In this document: positions 2,821 through 61,698 of the stretch, piece after piece | Numbering within the stretch: the stretch's first letter is position 1 | How the letters are laid out: the number at the start of each line of letters is the position of its first letter | DNA from: Dehalococcoidia bacterium | Lineage (GTDB): Bacteria > Chloroflexota > Dehalococcoidia > SM23-28-2 > RBG-16-64-32 | NCBI GenBank assembly: GCA_963665775.2 | Contig: CAXXTF010000002.1 | Coordinates: 192,001 to 256,000, forward strand | DNA: 64,000 bases | Direction of reading: 5' to 3' | Made by a program: the position numbers and the translations under genes | The notes under the pieces: generated by a model | Database searches by the model: none | What the model was told of the DNA's origin: nothing | Seen by the model: the letters and a program-made list of their open reading frames with translations, nothing else

Positions 2821-2842
2821 GACACTAAGTCTGCATCGTGTG
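2821..2842 (-). repeat. Palindromic putative recombination site (spacer GCAGAC on - strand)
   Basis: GACACTAA GTCTGC ATCGTGTG. Confidence 0.65.
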
Positions 2843-2930
2843 CGCCTGAGCCGTCACTCTTAGAGGGTCATGCCACGTTGACGCTCGAGAACATCTCGCC
2901 GGTCATGACGAGCGTGCGGTCGCCCCCGGC

Positions 2931-4415
2931 CTAGCGCCCCAGATCTGCGGACGGCGCTGGCCGGGGCGTGGGTGTGGCCGCCGGGGTGGGCTCCGGCGCT
3001 GGCGACGGCGATGGCGGCGGCGGCGGCGTGGCCGCTGGCAACGGCGTCTCGCTTGGTAGCGGGGCCGACGATGGCGTCGGCGAGGGCGCCGGCGGGGTCG
3101 ATCGGCTCTGCTCCGGAGTAAGTGTCGGGGATGGCGCGGGCAGCGGCGCCGGTGGACGGGGCGCAGGTGGTGGTGGTGGTGGCGGTGGGGTCGAGGGCTC
3201 CGTTTCCAGCCGGTAGGTGGCGTCGAACCAATCCCAGACGATGCCCGAGAGCCAGCTCCCGAAGGCGTATCCGGTCGCCTCCGTTCGCGCCCGCTGTGAA
3301 AGGTAGGTGATGGCGTATGATTTCTCCTCACCGTCGGCGCCTGTGAAGGTTACGAGTCCGGCATCGTTGTTCACCCAGCCATCCGTATCCCAGTAGTAGC
3401 CGATTTTGTGGGCCACCGTGGCGGCCGAGGGCAGCCGACCAGGCAGCATATAGTTGAGCCCCGGCTTGATCTCCCGTAGACGTGAGAGCGTGTAAGCCGT
3501 CCACTCCGGCTCGAACATCTCGCCGCGGTAGAGCCTCGTAAGGACGGCGTTTGTCTCCAGGGCGGTGAGCAGGTTGTTCTGGCTGCCGTCCCCATAGTAG
3601 GGGAGGTGATCGAATATGGACGCCTCCATCCCCCAGGAGCGCATCATCTCGCCGGCCTGCGCAACGCCCGTCCAGTGCGAGCCGAACACCGTATCGAGCA
3701 GCTGCTTCACCTGCGGTGGATAGCTGTGGCCGATGCCGACGGCGATATTGTAGGCGACGGGCGAAGGGCTGGCCCGACCCGCCTGGAACTCATCCACGGC
3801 CGCGAACAGGGCGAACATGTTGATCGTGCAGCCGGTGCGCTGGGCGACGTTCCCGCTAATCGAGATGGTCTGGTCGGTTTGCAGGTCCGTCACCGCTATC
3901 GCCACCTCAATGTCGCCAGCGAGCGCTCGGTAGGCCTCGATCTGTCCGGCCAGAGTGTCCCTCAGGGCCAGGAACTCGGTGGAGGGGTCCACGTTCTCTG
4001 CGATGTCTCCCAGGGTTGGCGCCGCCTGCGGTCCGATCGGCTGGTCGCCGCCAGCGGTCACCAGGGTCGGTGCGTTCGCCGGACCGGGCGCTAGCGGGAT
4101 GGGGGACCGGGTCGGGATGGGGGTGAGCGTCGGCGAGAGCGCCGCTGCCGGCTCGCCCGCTGGGCTGGCGACGGCGGAGACCAGGGCCAGCGTCCCCGCC
4201 GTGGCTGTCAGGGCGGCCACCAGCGTGCCCAGGCCCAGGGCCAGCCTGCGCACTCTTGTCCGGCGCTTTCCCGGGCCTGCTCGCGCTGGCTCTGGCCTCG
4301 CCATCCCGGCTTCCCGCCGCTCCAGCCTGGGCCTAGCACGGTCCAGCAAGAGCCAAAGAAACAGCGCCGCCAGCAGCGCTAGGAACAGGAACCCGCTGTC
4401 CTTGCCCAGTTTCAA
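2931..4415 (-). CDS. Membrane-anchored class A beta-lactamase-like (serine hydrolase fold) protein with Pro-rich tail
   Basis: IAVTDLQT, VAHKIG, VNNDAGLV and YAITYL blocks fit the Beta-lactamase2 fold; two N-terminal hydrophobic segments; P/S/T-rich C-terminus. Confidence 0.75.
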   Translation of the reverse strand: MKLGKDSGFLFLALLAALFLWLLLDRARPRLERREAGMARPEPARAGPGKRRTRVRRLALGLGTLVAALTATAGTLALVSAVASPAGEPAAALSPTLTPIPTRSPIPLAPGPANAPTLVTAGGDQPIGPQAAPTLGDIAENVDPSTEFLALRDTLAGQIEAYRALAGDIEVAIAVTDLQTDQTISISGNVAQRTGCTINMFALFAAVDEFQAGRASPSPVAYNIAVGIGHSYPPQVKQLLDTVFGSHWTGVAQAGEMMRSWGMEASIFDHLPYYGDGSQNNLLTALETNAVLTRLYRGEMFEPEWTAYTLSRLREIKPGLNYMLPGRLPSAATVAHKIGYYWDTDGWVNNDAGLVTFTGADGEEKSYAITYLSQRARTEATGYAFGSWLSGIVWDWFDATYRLETEPSTPPPPPPPPAPRPPAPLPAPSPTLTPEQSRSTPPAPSPTPSSAPLPSETPLPAATPPPPPSPSPAPEPTPAATPTPRPAPSADLGR

Positions 4416-5130
4416 TTGTTGCGATCCCTCTGACTACGCTCCACTTCTTCGTAGAGCATGGCAGCCAGGATCATCCGGTCGACGAGGAACGACTGGCGTG
4501 TGGCCTCAGTCATGAAGGCCTCCGGATGATGACAGCACCTATCATGCTATGTAGAACGCGGGCACGCGATGTCAGTTTCAGGTGCGTCCCGCTGGGCTGG
4601 TTGCTTGCTGTCCCAGTGGTTCTGTCAGATCTCAGGGCTCAAGCGCCGCCAGGACCGTGTTCCTGGCCTCACGACGCCCGCCCTCAGATTCGGAGGGGGT
4701 CGGTTTCTCGCCCTCCAGCATGCCCCGATATGGCTCAAGCCCTGAGTTCTGACAGATCCCGAAGAGTAAATGACTGCTTAGGCCTGCCACCTAGCCGGAG
4801 TCAAGGCGCCAAAGGTTCGCGCTGGTGGCTGCCAATGCCGCACAGTTGCCGAGAACGTGGGAGAAACGGGGAGCGAATCGGCCGGACCTGCCCGAATCTG
4901 GCTCGAGGGAGCGCCTGGCACACACTAGAACGAGCGAGGTGCTGTGCACAGGCGCTCTGACTATTGCCGCCCTACAGGATAACCGACGGACCTTTTCAGA
5001 CACATAATATGGCCAAGAAAATCATTCAAAAGCGTATAATTGGGTCCAGACAGATGAATTTCGGCAACCTTCTCGGTCATCTCGGGCGGAAGCAAGGCGT
5101 CCGTGACCGACAGTTTGTAGCTATAGCCGA

Positions 5131-35410: not shown

Positions 35411-35415
35411 AAGTC

Positions 35416-37455: not shown

Positions 37456-37457
37456 AT

Positions 37458-39281: not shown

Positions 39282-39305
39282 AACTCACTCTGGCCGGGAA
39301 CGAAG

Positions 39306-45501: not shown

Positions 45502-46743
45502 TCACGAAGAGACGCGACCCAGATCAATGCTCCAGAAGACGGGCTCGTGGGGGTGGTAACTGAAATCGGAGCCGCGGACGATGGAGTTTCTCAGATATTG
45601 GGCCATGCGAGGAAGAACCTCTTCAATGGCTTGATATACCCGCTGAAGGGCGTGCCAGACACTGCTGCGGGCGCGCTCCGATTGAGCTACCACTTTCCGA
45701 GGCTTGCCTCGAATGCCAAGAGCTCCCGCCAAATGATCGCGAATCGTCTGCAATTCGTGTTCTTCTGCATCAGAGAGGCCGAGGCTGCCCTTCTTAGCAT
45801 CAAGTTCCTCGATTCGCCGCTGGTATTGCTGGCGCGCCTCTCTATCTACCAGGTCTTCATTGTCGTACCCGGTCGACGACGCCAGGGCAGCTAGATCCTC
45901 GTTGCCGGTGCGGGTAGTGGGTAGGTGCCCTTCAGCCAAGGCGACGAGTTCCATGGCTCGAAATGTCCGTCCGGGATGCTGCAAAAGGTGCGCTAGATAG
46001 AGCATCCTGACTCGATGGGGAATGGTCTCAAGCTGGTTGTCATAGACGAGTTCCCACAGTTTGCCCCGCCTGCGTAGTGAATACGGAGTATTGATGGCCT
46101 GCCCGGGGCCACCTAGGGCAAGACCTGAGAAGTCGAAGTGAAGTTCGGTCCCCTCCAGGCGCATGGCATGGCCGAGCGGCAGCCAGTTGCCGGGCGGACT
46201 CCAACTTGGGCTCTCCTGACTAAGGACAAAGAGTACGGCTGTTGGCTCGCGGGGAAGGTTCCTGTCGAAGACTGAGATTGCGTCCGGCCAGCACGCCCCT
46301 CGGAGGAGATACGCGGGCCGTGGCCCGGTCGGCGGTGAGGCAAGGCCCAGGCTCCAAGAGCGGCCACGGATTACTTCGGCTGGAGTGGCCTCGGTTTGAA
46401 GCGCGACTCCCAATTTCTTCGCGATAGTGCCGGGATCGACGCGCCACTGCCACAGACTGCTGGGCTCCAAGAAGACACGACCGTTGTTTGGGCAGGGGAT
46501 GAATGGCCGCGGCGGTAATCCTCCTGATTCGAGGAACAATACCCGCTCTGAATGCGGTTCATCACACTCCTCGCATGATACGCGATCCAGCGCTGATGAC
46601 CGCAGCAGGAACCCCGCTTCCTCCAGACTATCCACGGCTCCAGCAGGCCAGAGACTGGCTTCGTTCGCCAGCACTACCCTGGGCGCGTCCCCCGCCAGGT
46701 CAGCGCGGCGAAGCAGGTCGTTAACGATATCGATGAGCGTCAC
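45502..46743 (-). CDS. Hypothetical protein (Cys cluster, probable C-terminal DNA-binding region)
   Basis: CEECDEPH..CP; overlaps upstream gene by 4 bp. Confidence 0.7.
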   Translation of the reverse strand: MTLIDIVNDLLRRADLAGDAPRVVLANEASLWPAGAVDSLEEAGFLLRSSALDRVSCEECDEPHSERVLFLESGGLPPRPFIPCPNNGRVFLEPSSLWQWRVDPGTIAKKLGVALQTEATPAEVIRGRSWSLGLASPPTGPRPAYLLRGACWPDAISVFDRNLPREPTAVLFVLSQESPSWSPPGNWLPLGHAMRLEGTELHFDFSGLALGGPGQAINTPYSLRRRGKLWELVYDNQLETIPHRVRMLYLAHLLQHPGRTFRAMELVALAEGHLPTTRTGNEDLAALASSTGYDNEDLVDREARQQYQRRIEELDAKKGSLGLSDAEEHELQTIRDHLAGALGIRGKPRKVVAQSERARSSVWHALQRVYQAIEEVLPRMAQYLRNSIVRGSDFSYHPHEPVFWSIDLGRVSS

Positions 46744-47945
46744 GCGAGGACGAGGTCGGGCACCTGTTCAAGGCCCGAATCAACCAGCACTTTGCGAATC
46801 ACGCCGTCCATGCCCTCCTGATCCAAGAGGCAACCATTGCGGGTCAGAGTGAAAGTCCGCGTCCTGCCTCGACGTCGCTTGCCCAAGGGGCGGAAAAAGG
46901 CTTGGAGCTTGGCCTTGTCAACGTCCATCAGGGCTAGAGGGTATCGGTCGGTTTGGGGGCCGGGACTGGTCGCGAAGTACTTGTCGGCTGCGAAGATGAC
47001 CCCAAGCCCGGCAGGGCCACCGACCTGCAGGATTAGTTGTCGACCTCCGTCCCGGTCGCGTAGATGTATCCACTTCACTTCGATGCTCTCGAGGCCAGTG
47101 GATGCGTCGATAACGAACGAGAAGCCCGCTTCCTTCAAGAGATCGAGGCGATAGGCCCTTTCGGCGCCTGGGTCGGCCCCGAGGTCGATACCCAGAATCG
47201 TTCTGGCGAATATCTCTTGCAGGTCCCGGACCTTGTCCTTCGCACCCTGGCAAAACGTTTCGAGCATGTGGCGGTCAGGCGAATAGAAGAACAGGAGATC
47301 CGTCGCGGGTCGGTACTTGCGGCGCACTAGCTTCTCTTCCTCGTACTCAAGCATCGTCTGCCCATAGTCTTCGGGGTACGCGATGTATAGATACCCGGTG
47401 GATCGTTGCAGCCATTCCACATGGCAGTGTTGACCGCGACCCTCCCGCTGAAGTAAATACCCCGTTAGCTGTGCCGACAGGCGCTTCCACCCGGCTTCAC
47501 TCGTATCGGGCTCAGCTTCCGGTATGCCGCGTCTGCGACGCCAATACCGTGCGTTTAGGGTGTCGGCACCTCGAAAGCGGAGGATGTCGGCAAAGAGATC
47601 CTCACGGTTTACAAGGGCCCATATGGCAACGTCGTAGGCACCATCCAGATCAGTAAGCACTCGCGTAAGGTCTTCACCCTGGAAGCGCGCCTCCTCGTAG
47701 AGAAGCCGCATCCCTTCAACGTCCGCAAGTTCGTATACATCTTGGAGGTCTTGGTCTAGGTCTGTCTGCTGGGCGGATGGAAGTCGTTGAAGCGCATCGC
47801 AAAGGGCTTCGACATCCGCATCTTCTTGGTGGAGACAGGGGACGTCTAACAGGGGTCGACGTGCTCCGAAGTACTCGCGCACGAGCGCCCAGGAGATATG
47901 GTGGAGGACCCCTTTTCTAGAGAATGCGTAGCGGCGCTTCGACAT
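46740..47945 (-). CDS. Hypothetical protein
   Basis: 401-aa ORF coupled to 45502..46743. Confidence 0.7.
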   Translation of the reverse strand: MSKRRYAFSRKGVLHHISWALVREYFGARRPLLDVPCLHQEDADVEALCDALQRLPSAQQTDLDQDLQDVYELADVEGMRLLYEEARFQGEDLTRVLTDLDGAYDVAIWALVNREDLFADILRFRGADTLNARYWRRRRGIPEAEPDTSEAGWKRLSAQLTGYLLQREGRGQHCHVEWLQRSTGYLYIAYPEDYGQTMLEYEEEKLVRRKYRPATDLLFFYSPDRHMLETFCQGAKDKVRDLQEIFARTILGIDLGADPGAERAYRLDLLKEAGFSFVIDASTGLESIEVKWIHLRDRDGGRQLILQVGGPAGLGVIFAADKYFATSPGPQTDRYPLALMDVDKAKLQAFFRPLGKRRRGRTRTFTLTRNGCLLDQEGMDGVIRKVLVDSGLEQVPDLVLA

Positions 47946-48059: not shown

Positions 48060-48998
48060 TTAGAGGCCTATTGCCGCCGCCACCTTATCCCAGCCTCGAT
48101 CCTCCTGTCCCTCTAGCCGTCGCAAGTAAACCGTCGTCACTGCGAGCGAGCTGTGATCCAGGAATTGGCTGACGTCCTCCACAGATTCACCGGCGTCTCG
48201 TCGCAGCTTGGCAGCCGAGTGACGGAGGATGTGAACACCAGCGGGCGGGAGGTCGGCCTTCCGGAGATAGTACCGTAGGTTCCCATAGAAGGTTCCGCTG
48301 GTCAGGTCGTGGCCTCCTCTAGAGTGCTGCGAGGGCCACAGCGACTCCTCCGGACTCATCGTGTATAGATTCTTGCCCCAGGCTGCGAGGGATCGCTCGA
48401 TTGCCTCGAATGCTGGTCGTGGAAGTTCTCTCTTCCCCTGTTTGCCACCCTTGCCTCGGTAGGTGTAGAACAAGCCGCCTGTCTGCAAGATGTCCCCTGC
48501 CTTGAGGTTCAGCACCTCGGAGCGGCGGCGACCAGTCAGCGTCAGGGTCAGGATGATTGCCCGGTCGCGGAGGACAGCTGGGGAGTCCGGAATTACCTCC
48601 AGCAGGCGGCGTATCTCCTCGGCGCTCAGTCCTCTCGGAGGGCTGGGTGAGGTTCTTGGCCGCTCGATCTCGTCGCACGGGTTCGAGGATACGATCTTCA
48701 TGCGGATGAGGAAGCGGTAGAACGAGCTCACGCAGGCAAGCCGGGCACCCACTGTGATCGACGAGGGCTTCTTACCGGAAGGACCGATGCCGTGTGCGAA
48801 GCCGAACACCTCCTGGCTCGTGATCTCGTTTGGAGGCTTGCCCATCGAGCCAAAGAAGTGCTGCAGCATTCTGGAGTAGCTCTCTACCGTGCGACTGGAG
48901 CCACTGCGGCGTTCCTTCTCGGCGAGGAAGGCATAGAAGGCCTGCTGCCAGCCCGGCGTCCGCTCGTCGAAGAGTACAATATCGTCAGTCATGCTCAC
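48060..48998 (-). CDS. Tyrosine recombinase (XerC/D-like size)
   Basis: SAM-like N-domain; TGRRRSE (R), GKGGK (K), HILRH, LDH and TTVY (Y) all intact. Confidence 0.95.
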   Translation of the reverse strand: MSMTDDIVLFDERTPGWQQAFYAFLAEKERRSGSSRTVESYSRMLQHFFGSMGKPPNEITSQEVFGFAHGIGPSGKKPSSITVGARLACVSSFYRFLIRMKIVSSNPCDEIERPRTSPSPPRGLSAEEIRRLLEVIPDSPAVLRDRAIILTLTLTGRRRSEVLNLKAGDILQTGGLFYTYRGKGGKQGKRELPRPAFEAIERSLAAWGKNLYTMSPEESLWPSQHSRGGHDLTSGTFYGNLRYYLRKADLPPAGVHILRHSAAKLRRDAGESVEDVSQFLDHSSLAVTTVYLRRLEGQEDRGWDKVAAAIGL

Positions 48999-49035: not shown

Positions 49036-49059
49036 GCACACGAAGTCAAGTTAGTGTGC
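49036..49059 (-). repeat. Palindromic putative recombination site upstream of the recombinase (spacer CTTGAC on - strand)
   Basis: GCACACGAA GTCAAG TTAGTGTGC, 8/9 arm symmetry. Confidence 0.75.
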
Positions 49060-50159: not shown

Positions 50160-50181
50160 ACCACTATGGCGCAATAGTGGT
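50160..50181 (-). repeat. Palindromic putative recombination site (spacer TGCGCC on - strand)
   Basis: ACCACTAT GGCGCA ATAGTGGT, perfect 8-bp arms, 3 bp after a stop codon. Confidence 0.8.
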
Positions 50182-50290: not shown

Positions 50291-51091
50291 ATGGCTCAGC
50301 AACCCGATTATTCCCTCCTAGACCGTCCGGAGATCATCTCGATCATGTTTCACCCACGACCGGAATGGTCGAGCCCTCCCTCTGGTGCCACCGATCATCT
50401 GGTGCCTGTGGCAGAAGGCGTTGCAGTAGCCTGCCGCTTCTATCGCAACGATAAGGCAGCCCCCTCCATCCTCTACTTCCATGGCAATGGCGAGGTGGTG
50501 AGGGATCACGACTCTATCGCCCCTTTTTATCAGCGGTCGGGTCTCAACCTATTCGTCGCTGACTATCGCGGCTACGGCGCTAGCGGGGGCCTCCCCAACT
50601 TCTCAACGATGCTCTCCGACGCTCGTCGGATCTTCGAGGCCTTTCGGGAGACGCTGGTCACTGAAAGCTGTGATGCTGCTCACTTCGTCATGGGCCGCTC
50701 CCTCGGCGCACTATCGGCTGTGGAGGTGGCGGCCCATTTTGGCCGGCAGCTCCGGGGACTCATCATCGAAAGCGGCGCTGCTGGTACTAGCGGCTGGTCG
50801 CGTTTTGCTCCCTCGGACGGTGACCCCTCCGCATGGCAAGAACTGCAACGGCTGCATCTGGCGAAGGTACAATCCATCACTATTCCGGTTCTGTCCATCC
50901 ATGCTGAGCTAGATGAGCTCATTCCGTTGGCCCAGGCCGTGGAATTGCAAGAGATCATCGGGTCGAGCCAGAAGCAATTGATCGTCATCCCGGCCGCAGG
51001 CCACAACGACATCATGCATGTCGGAATGGAGCAGTACTTCACAGCTCTAAGGAAGTTCATCTTCGGGACTATGCGTGACCAAACCAGATGA
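50291..51091 (+). CDS. Alpha/beta hydrolase
   Basis: FHGNGE, DYRGYG, GRSLG, D and AGHND triad. Confidence 0.92.
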   Translation: MAQQPDYSLLDRPEIISIMFHPRPEWSSPPSGATDHLVPVAEGVAVACRFYRNDKAAPSILYFHGNGEVVRDHDSIAPFYQRSGLNLFVADYRGYGASGGLPNFSTMLSDARRIFEAFRETLVTESCDAAHFVMGRSLGALSAVEVAAHFGRQLRGLIIESGAAGTSGWSRFAPSDGDPSAWQELQRLHLAKVQSITIPVLSIHAELDELIPLAQAVELQEIIGSSQKQLIVIPAAGHNDIMHVGMEQYFTALRKFIFGTMRDQTR

Positions 51092-51105: not shown

Positions 51106-51127
51106 CACGCTATGACCTGTGAGTGTC
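51106..51127 (-). repeat. Palindromic putative recombination site (spacer CAGGTC on - strand)
   Basis: CACGCTAT GACCTG TGAGTGTC, 14 bp after a stop codon. Confidence 0.65.
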
Positions 51128-51533: not shown

Positions 51534-54146
51534 CTAAGCCGTGGATCTGTCTGCGAACCACGACGCCAGCTGGGTCTGGTTCGTCTCAATCCACTTCACG
51601 TTCAGCCGGATGCGCTCCAGCGATTGCCAGACGGTCCTCTTCGCGGCGGGGACTGGGTGAGCCTCGAAGAACTCCTCGACCTCCTGAGCACGCTTCAATG
51701 TAGCGAAATCACCCGTGATGGCAACCAATCGCATGATTGCGAAGCCACCGCGGGCGTACCGTCGATCTAGCTCCGCCCAATTGTCCTTAGCCCACTGCCA
51801 CGTCAGATCGCGTCCGTGCCGGTTCGCGGCGGCCGACACGACCACCATCGGGGTATCCTGCGAGCGCACTTCGGGCGAGAGGGAGCGTTCCAGTGTCTCC
51901 TGGATCAACTCCGGTTGCCGGAAACGGGTGAGCGCCCCCAGGAGCCGCATGCGCTCCTCATGCAGGTTCGCCCGCTTCTCCAAATCCCATAGCCTATCGT
52001 AGGTGGAGCGGTCTCCCTGTTCGGCCGCCAGGTTGTATACCGTGCCCCGAATGTCCGGATGCAGGGAGCCGAAATCTCCGGTCAGCCGTGCGAAGCGCTT
52101 TTCGGCTTCAACCAGGATGTCACGGTCGCCGTAGGAGCCCGCTTGCCCTAGCACCGTGCTCCGTAGCAGGGAGTCCAGGTGCAGCTCTCCCGGCCGGGCA
52201 TCCCAGCCCACGCGCTGGATAATCCCGCTAAAGAGCGACCGGGCGAAGGCGTTAAACCGGGACAGGAATGGGGCATCGAGCAACAACGCCTCCAGTGAGC
52301 GCAGATTGCCCGATAGGTCGCTCCATACCGAGACGTCGTTCTCGTCCGTGTATGCCTCAATCAGCGAGAGATAGATTATGGCGGGAATGAAGCCGGCCCG
52401 CATGAGGGCGAAGGCATCGTTCTGGAGCCCGAGACGATCGGCGGCCGGCAGTTCCAGCGTCTTCACGGCCGAGCCCAGCCTATCCCACTCAGCCGGCGAA
52501 TAGTTCACGCGGAAGAAGCCGGTCTCCCCGGCGTTCACCTTGATCCAGTCCAGAGGATGTGAAGGCGGGTCGTTGCGCAGGCTCACCGATGCCCGCGGCC
52601 CGTCCATCAGCTGGGCGGCTGTCTCCGCTGAACGCGCCGTGATGACGCTGATCGGGACCTGCCAGGTAGTCTGGTCTTCGTCATCCTCGCTGAGGAGATG
52701 ATCATAGAGGAAGCGGCGCTGGGACAGGTTCAGACGCACCTCGGAGTCGCCTCGCTCGGCTTCGACTTGAAGCAGGGGGTAACCAGTCTGCTTGACCCAT
52801 GAGTCCATTATGGCGGTGACCGGCCTGGCAGAGGCTGCCTCCAGGGCGGCCCAGAGGTGCTCAGTCCGGGCGTTGGCATACTGGTGGGCGGCGAGGTAGG
52901 CGCGAAGTCCGTCGCGGAACGTTTCAGCACCCAGCATCTCCTCCAGCATGTGCAGGATGGCAGCCCCTTTTCGGTAGCTGATGGCATCGAACAGCTCTCG
53001 GATCTCGGCCGGATTTCGCACCTTGGCTTCGATGGGATGGGAGGCCCGAAGGCCGTCCAGGTTCAGCCCGACGTTGGTGTCCTCGTAGATGAACTGGGTC
53101 CACATGTGCCAATCGCGGAACAGATGATCGACGGCCTTGGTGCCCATCCAGGAGGCGAAGCTCTCATTTAGCCACAGGTCATCCCACCACTCCATGGTAA
53201 CCAGATCGCCGAACCACATATGCGCCATCTCGTGCGCTACCACTTCGGCGATGCGCTGGCGGGTGTTGGCGGCCGAGTTCGCGGGATCATACAGGAGAGC
53301 CGTCTCCCGATAGGTAATCGCGCCCCAGTTCTCCATCGCGCCAGAGGCGAAGTCCGGGATAGCGATGTGGTCTAGCTTGGACAGCGGGTAGACGATGCCG
53401 AAGTAGTCGTTGAGGTAGGCGAGCAGTCCGACTGAGGTCTCCAGGGCGAACCGTCCCTGCTCCTCACTGCCGCGGGTTGCCCATACCCTTACCACAGTGC
53501 CGTTCGCTGCTGTCGACTCCACCGAGGCGAAGTCCCCGACGATGAAGGCCAGAAGATAGGTTGACATCTTGGGCGTCTGAGCGAAGCGGACCGCCTTCAT
53601 GCCGCTTGGCAGGGGGGTCTCCCCCTCCACATTCGTATTCGAGATTGCGGCCAGATCGGCTGGGACGATCAGAGTCACGTCAAAGATCGCCTTGATGTCT
53701 GGCTCATCCCAGCACGGGAACGCGCGACGGGCATCCGTCGCCTCGAACTGAGTCGTCGCTATGAGGCGCTGCTGGCCCTGGCCGTCCGCATACTGACTCC
53801 GGTAAAACCCCCGGAGCTGGTCGTTGAGCGTGCCGCTGAACTGGATACTGAGCTTGGCGTCTCCCCTGGGAATCGTGTCGCTAAAGGAGAAGCTGACGGT
53901 CTCGTGGGTTTCGTCCAGGTCGATGCTTGTGGCTGACTGCGTTACGCCTCCTGTGGGGACGATCTGCGCGCCGGCGATCTGGAGCTCCGCCGCGTTGATC
54001 GTGATCTGAGTGGTGGGGGCTGCCACCTCTATGTCTATGATCTCCTCGCCCTTGAAGGAGAACCCTTTCAGATCCACAGTGAGAGTGAGGCTGTATCTTG
54101 TGGGGCGTGCGTCTGAGGGCAGCCGAAAGGGAGAGGGTGTGGCCAT
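51534..54146 (-). CDS. M1 family zinc aminopeptidase (puromycin-sensitive/PepN-like)
   Basis: TQFEATDARRAFPCWDEP, GAMENWG, HEMAH..WLNES, ERAP1-like C-terminus. Confidence 0.96.
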   Translation of the reverse strand: MATPSPFRLPSDARPTRYSLTLTVDLKGFSFKGEEIIDIEVAAPTTQITINAAELQIAGAQIVPTGGVTQSATSIDLDETHETVSFSFSDTIPRGDAKLSIQFSGTLNDQLRGFYRSQYADGQGQQRLIATTQFEATDARRAFPCWDEPDIKAIFDVTLIVPADLAAISNTNVEGETPLPSGMKAVRFAQTPKMSTYLLAFIVGDFASVESTAANGTVVRVWATRGSEEQGRFALETSVGLLAYLNDYFGIVYPLSKLDHIAIPDFASGAMENWGAITYRETALLYDPANSAANTRQRIAEVVAHEMAHMWFGDLVTMEWWDDLWLNESFASWMGTKAVDHLFRDWHMWTQFIYEDTNVGLNLDGLRASHPIEAKVRNPAEIRELFDAISYRKGAAILHMLEEMLGAETFRDGLRAYLAAHQYANARTEHLWAALEAASARPVTAIMDSWVKQTGYPLLQVEAERGDSEVRLNLSQRRFLYDHLLSEDDEDQTTWQVPISVITARSAETAAQLMDGPRASVSLRNDPPSHPLDWIKVNAGETGFFRVNYSPAEWDRLGSAVKTLELPAADRLGLQNDAFALMRAGFIPAIIYLSLIEAYTDENDVSVWSDLSGNLRSLEALLLDAPFLSRFNAFARSLFSGIIQRVGWDARPGELHLDSLLRSTVLGQAGSYGDRDILVEAEKRFARLTGDFGSLHPDIRGTVYNLAAEQGDRSTYDRLWDLEKRANLHEERMRLLGALTRFRQPELIQETLERSLSPEVRSQDTPMVVVSAAANRHGRDLTWQWAKDNWAELDRRYARGGFAIMRLVAITGDFATLKRAQEVEEFFEAHPVPAAKRTVWQSLERIRLNVKWIETNQTQLASWFADRSTA

Positions 54147-54502
54147 AGGTTATCTTCCCTTAACTATACCGGTCATGCGAGAGGTAGTAGCCCGGGCCGC
54201 CGTGCGCGGACCCACCGCCTCGTGGGCTTTGTGCATCCTTGCGGCCCTCTCGGGTGCCTATGTTTCTAGCAGGCAGATTATATAGCGCCCCTCCGAAGCT
54301 GAGTCAATGGCGTGTCCCGACTCCTGCCACCGGTACATGTTGTACGTCGTGGGGCAGCTATTCCCTATCCAAAGTCAGGAATCCCTCTTAGCTCCAACGC
54401 AGCACCTGCCATGGCTGAAGCCAAAGATATGCGAAAGTGAGGCGGATCAAGTGGGTATAGACTATCCCGATTCCTGCCTTCATCGCTCGGTCGCGTACGA
54501 TG

Positions 54503-54520
54503 CACTATCCACACATAGTG
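54503..54520 (+). repeat. Palindromic putative recombination site (spacer CCACAC)
   Basis: CACTAT CCACAC ATAGTG. Confidence 0.8.
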
Positions 54521-54582
54521 TTGCTTCGGCGGTGAGCTGACCAGACTCGTCGGCGGCCTCGGAGGGTTTCTGGCTCTGAGCC

Positions 54583-55452
54583 TTAGCCGTCCGCTAAGAA
54601 CGCCTCCACTACCTCCAAGAAGCGGTCCAGCTGTTCGTGGTGGACCCAGTGACCAGCGCCCTCGATAACTGCCGAGCGATAGAAGGGGAGTGCGCGGGCT
54701 CTTGCCTGCCACTCCGGATGAGCGGACCAGCTCTCGCCTCCAGCTACGAGCAGCACGGGCGCTCGAATGTTGGCCCAAAGCTCCTCGCCCCCGTCAGGGT
54801 GCAGACCGCCTGCGACGAGGTAGTTATCAAACTTCCACGAGTAGGTGCCGTCTTCGTTTTTCCGGATGCCATGAAGGGCCAAATGGCGAGCGATACCGGG
54901 GCTGACTCGCGGGTTCACCTCAATTATTCGGCGAGTAGCTTCCTCTACGGAAACATGCCTGCGCAATCGTCGTCGCTCCCCGTGGCGCCTGCTGTCGATC
55001 CAATGCCGCATTCGTGCAGGGGGAGCCATGCCGTCCGGGCTGTGAGCGACCACGGGAGGGCCGAGTCCCTCGACCGCTATCACTTTCGACACTCTCTCCG
55101 GAAATACTCCGGCATACTGCAGGGCGATATTTCCGCCGCGGGAGTAACCCATGATGGCAAGTGAACCCTCAATCGTTTCCGCTAGAGTCGCAATGTCCAA
55201 GACAAAATCAGGTGTCCCGTAGGAGCCATCTGTAACCCACTCACTATCGCCATGACCCCTAAGATCGGGAGCGTAGATCGTATAGCGGTTCTTGAGCGTC
55301 CGCGCCACGAAATCCCAGCTTCTGCAGTGCTCCCTGCTGCCATGGATAAGCAGGAGCGGAGGGCCGCCGCTTTCACGCCATACCACGTAGTGCAGCCGGA
55401 GCCGCTGAGATTCATAGAAGTGCGACTCGGGCTCATCGAGGCCGAAGCGCAT
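54583..55452 (-). CDS. Alpha/beta hydrolase
   Basis: LIHG, DLRGHGDS, GYSRG, AGHWVHH. Confidence 0.92.
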   Translation of the reverse strand: MRFGLDEPESHFYESQRLRLHYVVWRESGGPPLLLIHGSREHCRSWDFVARTLKNRYTIYAPDLRGHGDSEWVTDGSYGTPDFVLDIATLAETIEGSLAIMGYSRGGNIALQYAGVFPERVSKVIAVEGLGPPVVAHSPDGMAPPARMRHWIDSRRHGERRRLRRHVSVEEATRRIIEVNPRVSPGIARHLALHGIRKNEDGTYSWKFDNYLVAGGLHPDGGEELWANIRAPVLLVAGGESWSAHPEWQARARALPFYRSAVIEGAGHWVHHEQLDRFLEVVEAFLADG

Positions 55453-55526
55453 GGAATGTCACCCTAATCTTCATGTCATCATATTGATGGAAACGTCTGG
55501 GGTGGAGAATAACATATCTGGGGGGA

Positions 55527-55544
55527 GGCTATGCAGACATAGTG
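55527..55544 (+). repeat. Palindromic putative recombination site (spacer GCAGAC)
   Basis: GGCTAT GCAGAC ATAGTG. Confidence 0.7.
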
Positions 55545-55744
55545 GTCCCGGCTAACAGGCGGCGGCTCAGGAAAACGGTCCGTCTTTCCAGGGACAGCGA
55601 CACACTATCCGGTTGAAATGTAGCTGGGGCCTCCATGCCTAAACGATTGGCGGCCACTAAGACTAGATGCCGACTATGGGCGATTTCCGAACGTAGGGAG
55701 CGTGATCGCTACCGCGCCTCACGCTTCCCCCGAAGCGCGCCACA

Positions 55745-56950
55745 CTACGCCACCAGTCCCCGGTCCATCAACTCTCTGATCTGTCCCTCTGTATAGCCGA
55801 TCTCCGCCAACACCCCGGCAGTGTGCTGGCCTACCTCGGGGGCCGGAGTGGGAGTCGGGAAGGCCTGGCCAGCGACTTTTATCGGAGTGGCCACCATCTT
55901 TAGCTGGCCGATGCCGGGCCGTCGCTGGTCTACGATCATCTCTCTGGCCTTGAAGAGCTCAGTGTTTTCGACCTCGTCCCGCGGATAGTACGGTGCCCCG
56001 GCGATGTTGTAGTCGACAAAGATCTCCGTCCACTCTTCCCTCGTCCTCGTGCGAAACACTTTGACCAGTTCTTCGCGCAGCTCACCATCGGCGGAGGCCA
56101 GCTCCATGCGGCTCGCGCTCCAATCACCCCGACTGGCTAGGTCCGGCCGCCCCACGACCTCACAGAAATGCTCCCAGAAGTGCTGCTCGATGGACTGAAG
56201 CAGGATCCACCCGTCGTCTTTCGTCTGGTAGTATCCGGCCTTGGCCGATCGTCCTGCCTTCGAAGCGGGCGAGCCGAGATCCGCGCCGTTCAGGACCGGG
56301 AGCATCTCCAGCCCAAGGGCCATGAGGGTTGAGTCAGCGCAGGAGATGTCGAGGTAGGCGCCCTCCCCGGCGTCCCGGGCCTGGATGAGCGCTGCACATA
56401 TGCCGAGCGCCGCCATCCAGCCACCGTAGATACCGCCGCGGGGATACGAGGAGGTCGGGCGGTCCTGGACGGCACCATCGTCCCCGGAGGAGGGCGGAGG
56501 GGCCATGCCGGTAACGGCATCGAAGCCGCCGCCATGGCTGGCCAGCTGGGCGAAGGGTCCGGTCTGGCCGAATCCGGTTACCGAGCAGTAGACGATCCTG
56601 GGATTGACGAGGCTAATCCGGTCATAGCCCAGACCGAGCTTGGCCAGTGCGTCAGGCCTAGCGCTTTCCACGAATACATCGCAGCTGCTGGCAAGATCGT
56701 AGACGACCTGCCGCCCCTCATCCGTCCGGAAATCGACGGCGATATCGCGCTTGTTCCGGTTGAAGCAGAGGAACGAACGCATCATTCCGGCCAGCTCGCC
56801 GGTGCCGCTTCCGGTTCTCATGTAATCGCCGATCGTGGGCTCCTCAACCTTGATCACGTCGGCGCCCATATCGGCGAGAAGCATCGTCGCTAGGGGACCG
56901 GGCAACAGTCGCGAGAGATCAAGAACCTTGATCCGATTGAGCAGACGCAC
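55745..56950 (-). CDS. Family III (CaiB/BaiF, AMACR-like) CoA-transferase
   Basis: LDLSRLLPGP, LADMGADVIKVE, NRNKR, TGFGQTGP, APEVGQHT. Confidence 0.9.
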   Translation of the reverse strand: MRLLNRIKVLDLSRLLPGPLATMLLADMGADVIKVEEPTIGDYMRTGSGTGELAGMMRSFLCFNRNKRDIAVDFRTDEGRQVVYDLASSCDVFVESARPDALAKLGLGYDRISLVNPRIVYCSVTGFGQTGPFAQLASHGGGFDAVTGMAPPPSSGDDGAVQDRPTSSYPRGGIYGGWMAALGICAALIQARDAGEGAYLDISCADSTLMALGLEMLPVLNGADLGSPASKAGRSAKAGYYQTKDDGWILLQSIEQHFWEHFCEVVGRPDLASRGDWSASRMELASADGELREELVKVFRTRTREEWTEIFVDYNIAGAPYYPRDEVENTELFKAREMIVDQRRPGIGQLKMVATPIKVAGQAFPTPTPAPEVGQHTAGVLAEIGYTEGQIRELMDRGLVA

Positions 56951-57169
56951 AGGTGACCTCCTTGGTTCATCACGGCAAGGCAGAGTGCAGCGAAATCGTA
57001 CCGGCGCCTCGGTGGCAGGCCAACGGACGTCGATAGCGCAGCCCCCCGGCGTCCGGCGCGATGACCATGCGGACGCACCGCACGTTCGAGCCGATGCGCC
57101 GAGAATATGCTAGGTATGGTGACCTGTCAACCGAAGCCTGCTTGGAGCGGCAGAGCCTGGCTGTTACCA

Positions 57170-57187
57170 CACGATGAAGTCATAGTG
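57170..57187 (+). repeat. Palindromic putative recombination site (spacer GAAGTC)
   Basis: CACGAT GAAGTC ATAGTG. Confidence 0.75.
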
Positions 57188-57276
57188 CGGGCCTCGGCCC
57201 CGCCATACTAATTCAGCGTTGAGGATCGCTATCAAGCCATGTATGATGGCCTCGACACTCGAACAAGGCACTGGCC

Positions 57277-58014
57277 ATGAATGCCCGCAGTCCGCTGACC
57301 GCAGCTGTTTTAGCGCTAATACTTATTGTTATTGGGGCTTGTGGGGGTAGCGAAAGGGCAGCTACGATCCTGCCAACGGCAACGCCGGTCGAAACCAGCA
57401 CGGCTCCAGCTGAGCCAACAGCCAACCCCAAGACCTCTAGCCCCGCTGCAACTGCTGTCGAAGGTGATGAGCTTGTTGAGCGGCTACCGGAGGCACTCCT
57501 AGCTTTGGAGGATATGCCGGCAGGGTGGACAGTGAGGGTGATAGTCGACGATGAAGAGGACGACGGCTCGACCATTTGCGGCGTGGCCTCCGGGCAGTTC
57601 TCCAGAGACGCATTCGCACGTTTCACTGCCGATTTCCAGAAAGCTGAGTTCGGGCCTTTCTTGGATCAAGTGGTCGATTACTTTCCAGAGGGCGAGGCGG
57701 AGCGGGTCATGGCGGAGTTCAGTGATGCCTTTCGCTCGTGTACTGAATGGACTGTGATCGAAGAGGATGGGACGGAAACCACCTGGCGGCTCGGTCCCCT
57801 ATCGTTTCCCAAGATCGGTGATGAGACGTTCGCATTCCGAATGTCCACGGTGACGTTCCTCGGCGCTGTGGAATTGGATTTCATTACTTGGCGACGGCAG
57901 GACATTGTTGTCGTGATAGCGCATACTAGCATCGGATTTGAGGGCATCGATGGAGAACAAACCGAGGCATTCGTGCGGCGCGCAGACGAGAAGTTGAGAG
58001 CTTTCTTGGATTAG
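57277..58014 (+). CDS. Lipoprotein (PknH-like extracellular sensor domain)
   Basis: Lipobox IGAC, LL.LEDMPAGW, two Cys, P.IGDET. Confidence 0.7.
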   Translation: MNARSPLTAAVLALILIVIGACGGSERAATILPTATPVETSTAPAEPTANPKTSSPAATAVEGDELVERLPEALLALEDMPAGWTVRVIVDDEEDDGSTICGVASGQFSRDAFARFTADFQKAEFGPFLDQVVDYFPEGEAERVMAEFSDAFRSCTEWTVIEEDGTETTWRLGPLSFPKIGDETFAFRMSTVTFLGAVELDFITWRRQDIVVVIAHTSIGFEGIDGEQTEAFVRRADEKLRAFLD

Positions 58015-58103: not shown

Positions 58104-58127
58104 CCCCACGATCGACACATCGTGGGG
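58104..58127 (+). repeat. Palindromic putative recombination site (spacer CGACAC)
   Basis: CCCCACGAT CGACAC ATCGTGGGG, perfect 9-bp arms, between convergent genes. Confidence 0.8.
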
Positions 58128-58205: not shown

Positions 58206-59360
58206 TTATTGCCACAGTGCTAGGAGCGTCTGTTCCAGCTCCACCTTTTCCCGCCGATAACGCTTGGAGGGGGGCTCCAGCGTTACTCTGGGGCCCGGCA
58301 TGCCGTAGAAGTTCCCCGAGGCATATGCGGCCATACCGTCGCCCACCTCTACATAGCAGAAGCCATGGCCCGTGAACCGGGTTGCGGTGCTCTCTCCTGC
58401 GATCTCTGCCGCTACGTTCGCCGCCACCACGCGGGCCTCCTCGTCCGCAAACACTCCGGCCTTGGGAAGGTACATGCCGATCGGCAATCTGACAGCCGTC
58501 ACGTCGCCGATGGCGAAGACCCCAGAGTAGCGCGTCTGGAGGGTTGTCGGGTCAACGGGGACCCAGCCTGAAGCGTCGACGAGCCCGCTCTCTCGCACCG
58601 CCGCCGGCGCGATGTGTGGCGGCACGCCCACCAGCAGGTCGAAGGAGGTGTCGTCTAACTCGAATAGAATCCTTCTGGAGGCGGGATCTATCTTCATCGG
58701 AATCTGCTCCCAGTGAAGCTCAATGTCCCGCTCTTCAAGCATCTCGATGAGGGCGGTTCCGAGATTGGCGCCGGCTACGAGCATCGGCTGGTCCTCGGGG
58801 GTGTAGAGGGCGATCTCTGTCCGCTGCCGGACACCCCGGTGGCGAAGGAGCGATTCAATGAGGAAGGCCGCTTCATAGGGCGCGGACGGGCAAGAGAAGG
58901 GGGTTCTGCTTACGAGGACGACGATGCGACCGCCGTTGAACTCGTTGAGCGTTCGCTGTATCTGCAGGGCGCCATCGCTCTCGTATAAATTGAGCGCCGA
59001 TTCCGCGAAGCCTGGAACCGCCTGGGGATTCGTCTCGGTCCCCAGGGCCAGGATGATATAGTCGCCCTCCAGGGTGCCGGCTGTGGTCTGCACGGTCTTG
59101 GCAGCCGGGTCTATCGCCTGAATCTCCGCCTGAACCACTTCGATGCCGGTGCTCGCCAACCGTGATAGCTCGCGTTCTCCGTCCCTCGGATCCTTCCTCT
59201 CCCCTGTCATGACCCATAGGTTGGACATGCAGAGCGAGAAGGCGTGCCTCCTTTCGATCACCACTATGCGGTGCTCGGCCGGCGATAGCCTTCGCAGGTG
59301 GCTGGCCGCCGTCAGGCCACCGATGCCGCCGCCCAAGACTAGTATCGTTTTCCTGCTCAT
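58206..59360 (-). CDS. FAD-dependent oxidoreductase (sulfide:quinone oxidoreductase-like)
   Basis: LGGGIGG, CPSAPYE, FAIGD, PKAGVFA, GFCYVE; start re-called to ATG 59360. Confidence 0.88.
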   Translation of the reverse strand: MSRKTILVLGGGIGGLTAASHLRRLSPAEHRIVVIERRHAFSLCMSNLWVMTGERKDPRDGERELSRLASTGIEVVQAEIQAIDPAAKTVQTTAGTLEGDYIILALGTETNPQAVPGFAESALNLYESDGALQIQRTLNEFNGGRIVVLVSRTPFSCPSAPYEAAFLIESLLRHRGVRQRTEIALYTPEDQPMLVAGANLGTALIEMLEERDIELHWEQIPMKIDPASRRILFELDDTSFDLLVGVPPHIAPAAVRESGLVDASGWVPVDPTTLQTRYSGVFAIGDVTAVRLPIGMYLPKAGVFADEEARVVAANVAAEIAGESTATRFTGHGFCYVEVGDGMAAYASGNFYGMPGPRVTLEPPSKRYRREKVELEQTLLALWQ

Positions 59361-59370
59361 TGCCGCCTCC

Positions 59371-59694
59371 CTAGCCGAAGGTGAGGACGCGGTCCGCCTC
59401 CTCCGTAAGTCGCACCAGGTCATCCATAGTGGACATGGGACACACGGCGCTTGCGTCCATCTGACGCAGGCGCAGGCACGTGCCACAGCTCAGGGCGACG
59501 CCCCCCAGCTCGTCGAAGCGCAGCAGCAGCCTTTGGACATCCATGCGTTCGTCCCCGATGCCCTCTATCTCGACGGCCGGTCCCAGGAGGAAGACGTTCG
59601 CCTCATGGCCGCGAGACAGGGCGGCCGAACCGAAGCGAAGGGCGTTCCACACCGTCTCAGTTTCGGTCGTATTGATCACCAGCAGGTACTTCAT
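59371..59694 (-). CDS. DsrE-family protein
   Basis: WNALRF, VFLLGPAVE, CGTC..R, ADRVLTF. Confidence 0.85.
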   Translation of the reverse strand: MKYLLVINTTETETVWNALRFGSAALSRGHEANVFLLGPAVEIEGIGDERMDVQRLLLRFDELGGVALSCGTCLRLRQMDASAVCPMSTMDDLVRLTEEADRVLTFG

Positions 59695-60084: not shown

Positions 60085-60220
60085 CACCCGCGAGCCGCTC
60101 GGGCTCCCGAAAATCCCAACGCTATCAAACCTATGTTAGCGCCCGCCTGGTATGTCACGGCAGGCTGGTTAAGTCAGCCACCACGGCCTGGCTAATTTCA
60201 ACGATAAAGAGGGGATGGCT

Positions 60221-60238
60221 TACCATTCAGCCATAGCG
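60221..60238 (+). repeat. Palindromic putative recombination site (spacer TCAGCC)
   Basis: TACCAT TCAGCC ATAGCG. Confidence 0.75.
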
Positions 60239-60376
60239 TGCGGTCCGGCTGACACTGCTTACAGTGAGCATGCTGCGCGAGACAGAACGAGGGAGCCTGT
60301 GACCTTTGACGGGTGCCTCAGGCAGGACTAGACTTGCCTCACGGCAGGGCCGCGCCGAGAAATTAGGAGGTACTCA

Positions 60377-60592: not shown

Positions 60593-60614
60593 CAGGCAGT
60601 AGTCCACGGAGGAG

Positions 60615-61529
60615 ATGAAGATGGTGATCCGAAGAAACGTGAGACACTCTTCCGATTCCGAAAAGCGAGAGTTTATTGCTGCCCTGCTAAGTCTCAAAGT
60701 TGAAGTCGGACCTGATGGGATTAGTACTTATGATCGGCACACACGCTGGCATATGGAAGCCATGGCCAAGGCGACTGATCCCGCGAGGCCTTGGTGGGAG
60801 CAGAACCAACCGCATCGAGGTCCAGCGTTTCTACCATGGCACCGGATGTTTCTTCGCTCGGTAGAGTGGGAACTCCAACGCGTTTCTGCAAACCCTAATC
60901 TAGGCATCCCTTATTGGGACTGGACTCAAGATGCGGCTAATCCAGCAAGTTCTCCTATTTGGGACCCCAGCCTCCTGGGTGGCAACGGCGACATATCGAA
61001 TAACGATGTCGTGACGACAGGCCCTCTCTCGAATCCGCTAACCTGGACAACTGTTCAACCACAGATCTCGCAACAGGGAGACCTGCTCGGCTTTCAGCCA
61101 GGAGGAGGTCTTCGCCGCAGATTTACCAATTCTATCGGTGTCCCCACGCAGGACGAAGTTGACCAGGTGCTCAATATGAGCGTCTATGATACGGACCCAT
61201 TGGATTCAACATCCACAGGCAGCTTCCGCAACACACTGGAGGGTTGGGTAGGGCCAGGCCTTCACAACCAAGTGCATGCATTCGTTGGTGGAGACATGAT
61301 GGCAGGCACTTCCCCCAACGATCCCGTCTTCTATCTGCACCATTGCCAGGTAGACCGAATTTGGGCCATCTGGCAGCGACGCTTTCCGAATAATCCCTAC
61401 ATTCCAGAAATTGGCGCCTCTGCTGGTCACAACCTTCGTGATCCCATGTTCCCATGGGATGGCCAGGCAACCAGCAAGCTGGTGACTCCTGAGGGGATGT
61501 TGAATCTGGGGAGTGTCATATACGCATAG
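60615..61529 (+). CDS. Tyrosinase (type 3 copper, MelC2-like)
   Basis: WH..HRGPAFLPWHR (CuA), IPYWDW, LHNQVH..SPNDPVFYLHH (CuB). Confidence 0.95.
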   Translation: MKMVIRRNVRHSSDSEKREFIAALLSLKVEVGPDGISTYDRHTRWHMEAMAKATDPARPWWEQNQPHRGPAFLPWHRMFLRSVEWELQRVSANPNLGIPYWDWTQDAANPASSPIWDPSLLGGNGDISNNDVVTTGPLSNPLTWTTVQPQISQQGDLLGFQPGGGLRRRFTNSIGVPTQDEVDQVLNMSVYDTDPLDSTSTGSFRNTLEGWVGPGLHNQVHAFVGGDMMAGTSPNDPVFYLHHCQVDRIWAIWQRRFPNNPYIPEIGASAGHNLRDPMFPWDGQATSKLVTPEGMLNLGSVIYA

Positions 61530-61676
61530 CATACGGTTAATAGGGGCGCCCACGATGGCTGGCAACCTGACCTGGTTGGACACGGACGCAATCTTGGCAC
61601 GCCTCACCGGGCCCCACCACCTTAGCCCGTTGTCGGCCGAAGAAGAACCATGTTCCCTCCCGCACAGCGCCCGGGA

Positions 61677-61698
61677 GACGCTATTAACTCATAGTGTC
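61677..61698 (+). repeat. Palindromic putative recombination site (spacer TAACTC)
   Basis: GACGCTAT TAACTC ATAGTGTC. Confidence 0.8.

Follow-up and report, generated by a model that had tools for sequence, protein, structure and literature searches.

A fixed-order series of Xer-type palindromic sites beside a tyrosine recombinase gene in a Dehalococcoidia genome and its probable role in in-register cassette exchange

Introduction

Xer-type recombination sites have 6-bp central regions, and in Acinetobacter the pdif sites are used by the XerC and XerD recombinases of the host (XerCD); module replacement at pdif sites has been proposed to proceed via a cointegrate formed at one matched pair of sites and resolved at another (PMC13141974). 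In the present work we describe a family of palindromic sites in a 64,000-bp stretch of DNA (the window; C2:192001-256000) from the two-contig genome of a Dehalococcoidia bacterium (2.35 Mb, 63% G+C), where the sites divide the region into gene cassettes beside the gene of a tyrosine recombinase. The two contigs are referred to as C1 and C2, the genome itself as G000 and its relatives as G002, G017, G036, G039 etc.; coordinates without a contig name are those of the window.

Two other arrangements serve for comparison. The attC sites of integrons are folded imperfect palindromes much longer than 20 bp, and in engineered cassette exchange, heterospecific lox or FRT sites with identical arms and mutually incompatible spacers define exchangeable slots. 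To our knowledge, the shuffling of modules at Xer-type sites has so far been known only from Acinetobacter plasmids that borrow the XerCD of their host. A literature search covering titles and abstract openings, with supplements and subscription journals outside its reach, returned no such system from Chloroflexota and no ordered series of sites distinguished by their spacers. An earlier note, made from the sequence of the window alone, had seen a candidate integron-like system and recognised no described system with this consensus; the literature search gave no match either, but pdif, which that note had cited for its architecture only, is closer than the note implied, and the Acinetobacter dif-module/pdif system, not the integron, is the closest one described.

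Results

Palindromic sites with a 6-bp centre

The site has the 20-bp consensus ACAC(T/G)A(T/A)-N6-(A/T)T(A/C)GTGT and was found at 14 places in the window. When both strands were searched with the strict pattern CACKAW-N6-WTMGYG, 17 strand matches representing 10 places were obtained, whereas 100 dinucleotide-preserving shuffles of the window gave 0.25 matches on average and at most 2. A half-site matrix trained on the 44 strict sites of the genome, with two half-sites paired in inverted orientation, has seven informative positions per arm (A-C-A-C-(T/G)-A-(T/A)) and at 6-bp spacing returned 13 window sites scoring at least 13.6 (at 2822, 26802, 32298, 36933, 39365, 49038, 50161, 51107, 54502, 55526, 57169, 58106 and 61678). 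The fourteenth site, at 60220, has a degenerate left arm (TTACCAT), yet it carries a TCAGCC centre where the order of the centres, described below, predicts one. The spacing is strict: 65 inverted half-site pairs were found genome-wide at 6 bp versus 3–13 each at 3, 4, 5, 7, 8, 9 and 10 bp, and a 6-bp spacer is also that of dif modules and pdif sites. Both arms match one half-site matrix, ACAC(T/G)A(T/A), and thus do not fall into distinct XerC- and XerD-binding arms.

The 13 copies that the earlier note had listed as clear are all real, with twelve passing the matrix and the one listed at 60221 having the degenerate arm and expected centre mentioned above, but the list had missed the site at 39365. 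None of the nine copies described there as weaker or having a 7-bp spacer passes the matrix; just the one at 37436 reaches a score of 11.3 at 7-bp spacing. Read in array orientation, 7 of the 11 canonical centres end in C, in line with the asymmetric spacer described there, and the remaining ones do not. The described positions after stop codons and between convergent genes were found as stated (50161 and 51107 lie 5 nt and 16 nt past stops, respectively, and 58106 between convergent open reading frames (ORFs)), and so was the claim that these are not attC sites, as a single 20-bp duplex-type core site occurs throughout. Cassettes with an attC each and a distinct attI, as in integrons, were not found, although no attC model was run; all sites, including the one closest to the recombinase, are of one type with 7-6-7 layout.

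The genome holds about 56–65 sites in total, grouped in 4–5 regions. Strict sites per 64-kb bin number 10 here, 10 in one other bin and 4 each in the two following bins, with none in most bins, and 39 of 65 sites fall outside ORFs or at ORF termini, the crude ORF set covering 91% of the genome. The sites are thus clustered, and mostly outside ORFs, instead of showing the even spread that the earlier note had set out as the contrary outcome. Most of the sites scored inside ORFs sit in small, doubtful ORFs, and the real exception is the CCGGCA class, which is placed in the 3' end of ParB-methyltransferase genes. These sites (39365-39384 in the window and C2 258994, 970010 and 983922) lie within the last 50–100 nt of the ORF, and the copies lose homology there on the stop-codon side, so that the C-terminal tails of the proteins differ among copies.

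One site outside the window (G000 C1:629757-629786) is the only one with a palindromic centre (GACGTC) and is part of a perfect 30-bp palindrome. It is solitary and distant from every cluster, and is a candidate for another role, e.g. as a chromosomal dif-like site or an operator. The GC skew of the genome showed no clear origin or terminus.

Order and orientation of the centres

The centres fall into about 11 recurrent 6-bp classes that follow one fixed cyclic order and orientation. The largest classes are CGACAC (10 members), GAGTTA/TAACTC (8), TCAGCC (6), GCAGAC (5), GACCTG (4) and CCGGCA (4), followed by GTCAAG, GGCGCA, CCACAC and GAAGTC (3 each) and GGGAAC (2), and the full 18-20-mer is often identical between copies with unrelated flanks. 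On the plus strand of the window the series reads GTCAAG (49038), GGCGCA, GACCTG, CCACAC, GCAGAC, GAAGTC, CGACAC, TCAGCC and TAACTC (61678), with CCGGCA coming next, just past the window end. Earlier in the window, CGACAC (26802), TCAGCC, TAACTC and CCGGCA (39365) occur in succession, and the whole or part of the series recurs at C1 767-782 kb and, in inverted form, at C2 970-981 kb. It cycles around a gene backbone, and the two CCGGCA sites are about 27.6 kb apart, a period that includes a 1.27-kb insertion sequence.

Over all sources, 60 of 64 same-orientation neighbour pairs obey this order, three of the four exceptions being cyclic wraps, whereas shuffles average 16 such pairs and reach 29 at most. 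The neighbouring classified pairs comprise 64 in the same orientation versus 7 switches, and the inverse alternation typical of pdif is therefore not seen. When the other genomes were considered alone (43 loci), 28 of 29 same-orientation neighbour pairs obeyed the order derived from G000 and no orientation switch occurred, while 2000 label shuffles yielded 6.9 such pairs on average and never more than 15. A slight drift of the centres is seen from one lineage to the next (CGACAC/CGGCAC, TCAGCC/TCTGCC), and the preferred arm variant is TAA/TTA in G039 vs TAT/ATA in G000.

Unrelated cargo and homology breakpoints

An all-against-all protein comparison based on crude ORFs showed that the cargo between equal pairs of centres is unrelated across copies. 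The slot from GTCAAG to GGCGCA holds a metallo-beta-lactamase-fold protein in the window versus two unrelated ORFs on C1; that from CCACAC to GCAGAC holds an alpha/beta hydrolase in the window and at C2 980 kb versus a beta-lactamase-like protein on C1; and that from GCAGAC to GAAGTC holds a CoA-transferase in the window versus a pair of proteins of 181 aa and 245 aa at C2 979-980 kb. Slot lengths range from 97 bp, the length of an empty CCACAC-to-GCAGAC slot in G036, to 7.7 kb.

Near-identical copies of 2822-4617, 26803-29778 and 54503-55544 were found elsewhere in the genome, with homology that starts or stops at a site. The site at 2822 is the start of homology to C1 778331-776554 (97.8%), and the copy of the beta-lactamase-like cassette on C1 is flanked by CCACAC and GCAGAC sites; the site at 26802 is the exact start of homology to C1 782060-785035 (97.8%); and the hydrolase cassette at 54503-55544 recurs at C2 981415-980368 (96.7%) between the same two centres, with unrelated DNA outside both. 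Pairs of sites with a common flank mostly have one such flank only, and the homology stops 0–2 nt outside the 20-mer. Of the 542 distinct low-copy repeat ends in the genome, 16 are no more than 5 bp away from a site, compared to 0.46 expected. These comparisons support the partition of the region into cassettes that the earlier note had proposed. In a comparison of 19 site pairs with one-sided homology, 9 mismatches were located in the arm on the homologous side, 2 in the centre (at most one per pair) and 19 in the far arm, a trend that lends modest support to a crossover in or at the centre.

Recombinase loci in other genomes

A scan of one genome per species for homologues of the recombinase gave 25 loci with 62–78% identity, in metagenome-assembled genomes (MAGs) labelled Dehalococcoidia, Chloroflexota or Chloroflexia, except that two of them (L017 and L018, 66–68% identity) come from a Thermoleophilia (actinobacterial) MAG. 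The latter two loci also hold 6-bp-spaced sites, with the centre CGCCTC occurring twice, and the combination of homologues and sites suggests that the system has been transferred between phyla. Together the 25 loci (414 kb) contain 44 sites at 6-bp spacing versus 0–5 at spacings of 4, 5, 7 and 8 bp, and 36 of the 44 lie upstream of the recombinase, the first often 52–86 bp from its start. The cassette array is thereby adjacent to, and divergent from, the recombinase gene, as it is in integrons. The link to the adjacent tyrosine recombinase that the earlier note had drawn agrees with these counts.

The order of the centres is the same in the 25 loci, with GACCTG (CAGGTC in locus orientation) present in about 15 of them, and contigs of G039, G036, G002 and G017 likewise keep this order and carry unrelated cargo. 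In a comparison of 31 relatives, G000 has the most strict sites (29 per strand), and several other genera have 5–9, with 0–2 in reversed-pattern controls; 43 + 49 strand hits were counted in G039, the genome of L007. Site counts are highest in the recombinase-carrying genomes G000, G039, G015 and G025.

In G039, a co-assembled MAG, many contigs end a few tens of bases from a site (e.g. C2:37, C117:37, C257:19, C299:3, C46:74 and C96:40). An assembly graph that branches at the sites, with flanks joined in more than one combination, would be expected to leave such ends.

Recombinase and element backbone

The gene next to the array (48060..48998, minus strand) encodes a tyrosine recombinase of 312 aa with Pfam Phage_int_SAM_1 and Phage_integrase domains, which we propose as the enzyme acting on the sites. 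The R, K, HxxR, H and Y catalytic positions are conserved in an alignment with XerD (1a0p), and the closest solved structures are XerD, XerA and an XerC-like protein. The enzyme belongs to the simple Xer-like tyrosine recombinase superfamily but scores about 110 bits with the XerD, XerA and XerC models, versus equivalog cut-offs of 220–335. With the NCBIfam integron-integrase models it scores 52 bits (cut-off 265) and 32 bits (cut-off 435), and it is thus not an IntI.

The recombinase gene is part of a backbone that occupies the interval from CCGGCA to GTCAAG and is encoded entirely on the minus strand. It is followed by two genes without a Pfam family (413 and 401 aa; 45502..47945), homologues of which, at 28–37% identity, come after the recombinase in several other loci, and by a large serine recombinase of 538 aa (43572..45188; Pfam Resolvase, Recombinase and Zn_ribbon_recom). 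Further along are a primase-like protein of 804 aa with a CHC2 zinc finger and a Prim-Pol protein of 94 aa (40550..43238; profile matches), and a protein combining ParB_N with an N6/N4 DNA methyltransferase (39306..40550; Pfam, NCBIfam and PHROGs matches). Four small backbone genes without a family (142, 303, 128 and 191 aa; 36925..39309, minus strand) lie beyond these and are conserved in the other copies and in G036. Matches to PHROGs are confined to the primase, ParB-methyltransferase and integrase families and one family of unknown function, and no capsid, terminase or conjugation genes were found among the scanned window proteins. An IMG/VR contig (L043) carries the backbone, which is not proof of a virus.

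The best explanation is that the sites are part of an integrative element some 26–28 kb long, present in the genome in several partly tandem copies. A homologue of the large serine recombinase is found within a few genes after the tyrosine recombinase in 10 of 27 loci, including one IMG/VR contig, and we infer that the serine recombinase would integrate the whole element, with the tyrosine recombinase acting on the internal sites.

Sites and cargo across the window

The main array starts at the first site (ACACGAA GTCAAG TTAGTGT, 49038..49057, on the plus strand, as are all sites listed here unless stated otherwise), which lies 40 bp upstream of the recombinase start and is identical beside the copies on C1 and at C2-60.9k. 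Downstream of it are a gene for a metallo-beta-lactamase-fold protein without a paralogue in the genome (49056..50156, plus strand), the site CCACTAT GGCGCA ATAGTGG (50161..50180) and an alpha/beta hydrolase (Hydrolase_4; 50291..51091, plus strand). The following site, ACGCTAT GACCTG TGAGTGT (51107..51126), has a weak right arm and the centre that is most widely conserved in other genomes, and is separated by an M1 aminopeptidase gene (51534..54146, minus strand) from GCACTAT CCACAC ATAGTGT (54502..54521). A second alpha/beta hydrolase (54583..55452, minus strand) is bounded on the right by AGGCTAT GCAGAC ATAGTGG (55526..55545), with a weak left arm; it is followed by a family III CoA-transferase of 401 aa (55745..56950, minus strand), which has 47 BLAST hits among the crude ORFs of the genome, and by the site ACACGAT GAAGTC ATAGTGC (57169..57188). 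A 245-aa protein of no family (57277..58014, plus strand) then precedes CCACGAT CGACAC ATCGTGG (58106..58125), and an FAD-dependent pyridine nucleotide-disulphide oxidoreductase (58206..59486, minus strand) precedes the degenerate site TTACCAT TCAGCC ATAGCGT (60220..60239), which was recognised by sequence inspection and matches the order in class and position. The slot from TCAGCC to TAACTC holds a tyrosinase-domain protein (60615..61529, plus strand), an unusual enzyme for a Dehalococcoidia genome, and ends at ACGCTAT TAACTC ATAGTGT (61678..61697).

To the left of the backbone, the site CCACGAT CGACAC ATAGTGT (26802..26821) is followed by a molybdopterin oxidoreductase gene (27128..29692, plus strand; Pfam), which is found to the right of CGACAC in three copies. 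Next come ACACTAT TCAGCC ATAGCGT (32298..32317), peptide ABC transporter genes (SBP_bac_5 and two permease-sized ORFs; 32522..36312, plus strand; Pfam) in the TCAGCC-to-TAACTC slot, and ACACCAT TAACTC ATAGTGT (36933..36952), whose right-hand 300 bp or so share 89% identity with the sequence flanking the site at 61678. The site TCGCTAT CCGGCA ATAGTGT (39365..39384), within the 3' end of the ParB-methyltransferase ORF, is present in the genome in four identical copies. Both the strict pattern and the matrix recovered the sites at 2822, 26802, 32298, 39365, 49038, 50161, 54502, 57169, 58106 and 61678, and the matrix those at 36933, 51107 and 55526. At the left end of the window, a minus-strand site of the GCAGAC class (ACACTAA GTCTGC ATCGTGT, 2822..2841), inverted relative to the main array, bounds a cassette for a beta-lactamase-like protein of 494 aa (2931..4415, minus strand; Pfam Beta-lactamase2). 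Taken as a whole, the cargo is made up of genes for ordinary accessory enzymes and transporters, which lie in both orientations.

A 24-kb site-free stretch of lower G+C (55–58%) at 4500-25000 encodes acyl-CoA dehydrogenases, a thiolase-like protein, a peptide-binding protein and three family III CoA-transferases, one being an 807-aa double-domain form. The insertion sequence of about 1.27 kb is found at 1-1192 and 62699-63971, with about 15 near-identical copies on both contigs, and encodes a 92-aa ORF and a 287-aa rve/HTH_21 transposase, an ORF layout that looks like that of the IS3 family; one copy interrupts the backbone segment from TAACTC to CCGGCA. A repeat of about 150 bp (26132-26280; about 80% identity) has at least eight copies on both contigs and is probably the end of another mobile element, since several of the copies adjoin a 243-aa ORF with 15 paralogues. 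Another repeat, of about 106 bp (29813-29918; 82–85% identity), recurs at C2 1439520, 359434 and 341847 and at C1 838111, and at three of these places adjoins genes of a second tyrosine recombinase family within other site clusters.

Public sequencing runs

Six public runs hold 0.95–0.99 of the stretch, and nine hold small shares (0.05–0.10) that consist of short, diverged pieces only and are uninformative on habitat. Runs X10, X13, X1 and X3, all of them assembled contigs, were aligned to 46000-64000. Their contigs break at sites (e.g. the piece 54519-55534), as any repeat boundary would give, and no site coincides with any of the 15 joints listed, with 105 further joints beyond that list.

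Discussion

Probable addresses for in-register exchange

In all likelihood the sites serve recombination and are linked to the adjacent recombinase. From the sequence comparisons we further consider it probable, with clear room for doubt, that they are double-stranded Xer-type core sites with centres that serve as addresses, and that related elements exchange cassettes in register. Each core site would consist of two 7-bp inverted arms around a 6-bp crossover region, and the element-encoded Xer-like recombinase (48060-48998) would use the sites, probably as a homodimer per site. The arms are common to all sites, and the non-palindromic 6-bp centre, which varies, would be the address: strand exchange would be productive for matching centres, such that just the equivalent sites of two related elements recombine. 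Exchange at an address i would fuse the two elements into a cointegrate, which a second exchange at an address j would resolve, swapping the cargo between i and j in register, and the order of the addresses would therefore stay fixed while the cargo turns over. The binding and cutting of the sites by the recombinase, the requirement for matching centres and the cointegrate-and-resolve route are what we infer from these patterns. More tentatively, and at somewhat below even chances, the locus may represent a natural multi-address cassette-exchange platform, in which one Xer-like recombinase, one arm sequence and at least 11 mutually incompatible centres label the slots, and in which related elements in different cells and genera could swap the cargo of any slot in register.

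Several observations weigh against in-register exchange by this enzyme. The order was derived from G000, and the contigs L026-L042 were picked for having at least two sites already listed, so the order test is not fully blind. The 19 pairs behind the arm-mismatch trend are non-independent, which is why that evidence is modest. The assembled contigs showed neither a recombination product nor a circle or alternative junction at a site. G002 and G017 have ordered sites and no recombinase homologue at E<=1e-60, an absence that is weak evidence because these genomes are 86% complete and in 240–340 contigs. A second tyrosine recombinase family is found inside some site clusters (C2 341-360 kb and 1438-1450 kb) and could be the acting enzyme, or an additional one. 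Finally, a homologue of the cargo at C2 346472-347506 occupies different slots in G000 and in G002/G017, and in-register exchange therefore cannot be the only process at work.

Alternative explanations

It is improbable that the palindromes are instead operators of an element-encoded repressor, with the cassette boundaries coinciding with them via homologous or microhomology exchange at short repeats. Some temperate phages carry many intergenic 'stoperator' sites, and the sites described here are palindromic and mostly outside ORFs; the one 40 bp upstream of the recombinase start could serve autoregulation, the several backbone proteins without an assigned function could include a DNA-binding protein, and recombination is not seen directly in the contig data. 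However, operators would leave unexplained both the exact conservation of the centres amid unrelated flanks and their single order and orientation across genera. The distances between sites and genes vary, with sites after stops and between convergent genes, the constant neighbour is a tyrosine recombinase, and repeat-driven exchange should homogenise the sites and not preserve 11 distinct centres.

Little probability attaches to the sites being used by another enzyme, i.e. the host Xer system for chromosome dimers or another recombinase of the element (the second tyrosine family or the serine recombinase), with the adjacent Xer-like gene as a passenger or regulator. The use of pdif sites by host XerCD in Acinetobacter provides a precedent, and both the sites in G002 and G017 and the other tyrosine recombinases in the C2 341-360 kb and 1438-1450 kb clusters would fit. 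Set against this are the clustering of sites upstream of recombinase homologues in 25 loci, including those of the actinobacterial MAG, and the peak in site counts among the recombinase carriers G000, G039, G015 and G025. Serine recombinase sites normally have 2-bp crossover centres, and the 6-bp spacers here speak against that variant.

Integron-like capture, in which circular cassettes with a single site would be inserted at or near the recombinase-proximal site and excised again through single-strand exchange as in attC x attI, is also unlikely: the recombinase does diverge from an adjoining array of compact one- or few-gene cassettes, and site-bounded units of cassette size recur elsewhere, but the enzyme scores 52 bits against the IntI cut-off of 265, the 20-bp duplex-type palindromes show no attI/attC dichotomy, the cassettes lie in both orientations, and capture at the end of the array would carry sites along with cassettes and scramble the order. 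The integron analogy drawn in the earlier note is not supported; the centres keep their order while the cargo changes, the opposite of cassettes that carry their own attC.

Three other origins of the sites were rejected. The window contains no tRNA gene and no match to an Rfam family, leaving neither tRNA-linked integration nor a known RNA motif as their cause; terminators or hairpins were dismissed by inspection, with no folding run, the stems being 7 bp and A/T-rich with no T-run after them; and transposon ends do not fit, as each site is itself palindromic, with inward-facing arms (the opposite of abutted terminal inverted repeats) and conserved centres.

Significance and comparison with known systems

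If in-register exchange at these addresses is correct, module shuffling at Xer-type sites would extend to uncultured Chloroflexota, with a dedicated recombinase and symmetric arms and with homologues in an actinobacterial MAG. Conserved, ordered spacer addresses that keep cargo slots in register would be a new principle, and one that could explain the turnover of accessory genes (hydrolases, CoA-transferases, oxidoreductases, peptidases and transporters) in small genomes. Such a system would parallel in nature the cassette exchange engineered with heterospecific lox sites; the spacer specificity of a tyrosine recombinase would become testable on about 11 natural variants, and a compact recombinase with many orthogonal sites could serve genome engineering.

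Compared to integrons, the locus shares a tyrosine recombinase divergent from an array of compact cassettes that are separated by imperfect palindromes. It differs in lacking an IntI, in having 20-bp duplex sites instead of a folded attC and cassettes in both orientations, and in that its sites are positional and not borne by the cassettes. The likeness to engineered lox/FRT exchange lies in identical arms with differing spacers that mark slots without scrambling; that system, however, is a laboratory design with 13-8-13 sites and Cre or Flp, whereas the sites here are natural and of 7-6-7 layout, with spacers that would be mutually incompatible.

The resemblance to pdif is closer. On Acinetobacter Rep_3 plasmids, separate accessory modules are flanked by numerous Xer-type sites with 6-bp spacers, and the matched centres at homology breakpoints and the partly tandem, cointegrate-like copies found here are in line with the pdif system. 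In contrast to pdif, the arms here are alike, without XerC and XerD halves, and the orientation of a site is given by its centre only; the sites are directly repeated and not alternately inverted; and about 11 centres keep a fixed order across genera. The setting also differs, the host being a member of Chloroflexota and the carrier a chromosomal integrative element instead of a Rep_3 plasmid, and a dedicated recombinase gene lies beside the array, whereas pdif sites are served by the XerC and XerD of the host.

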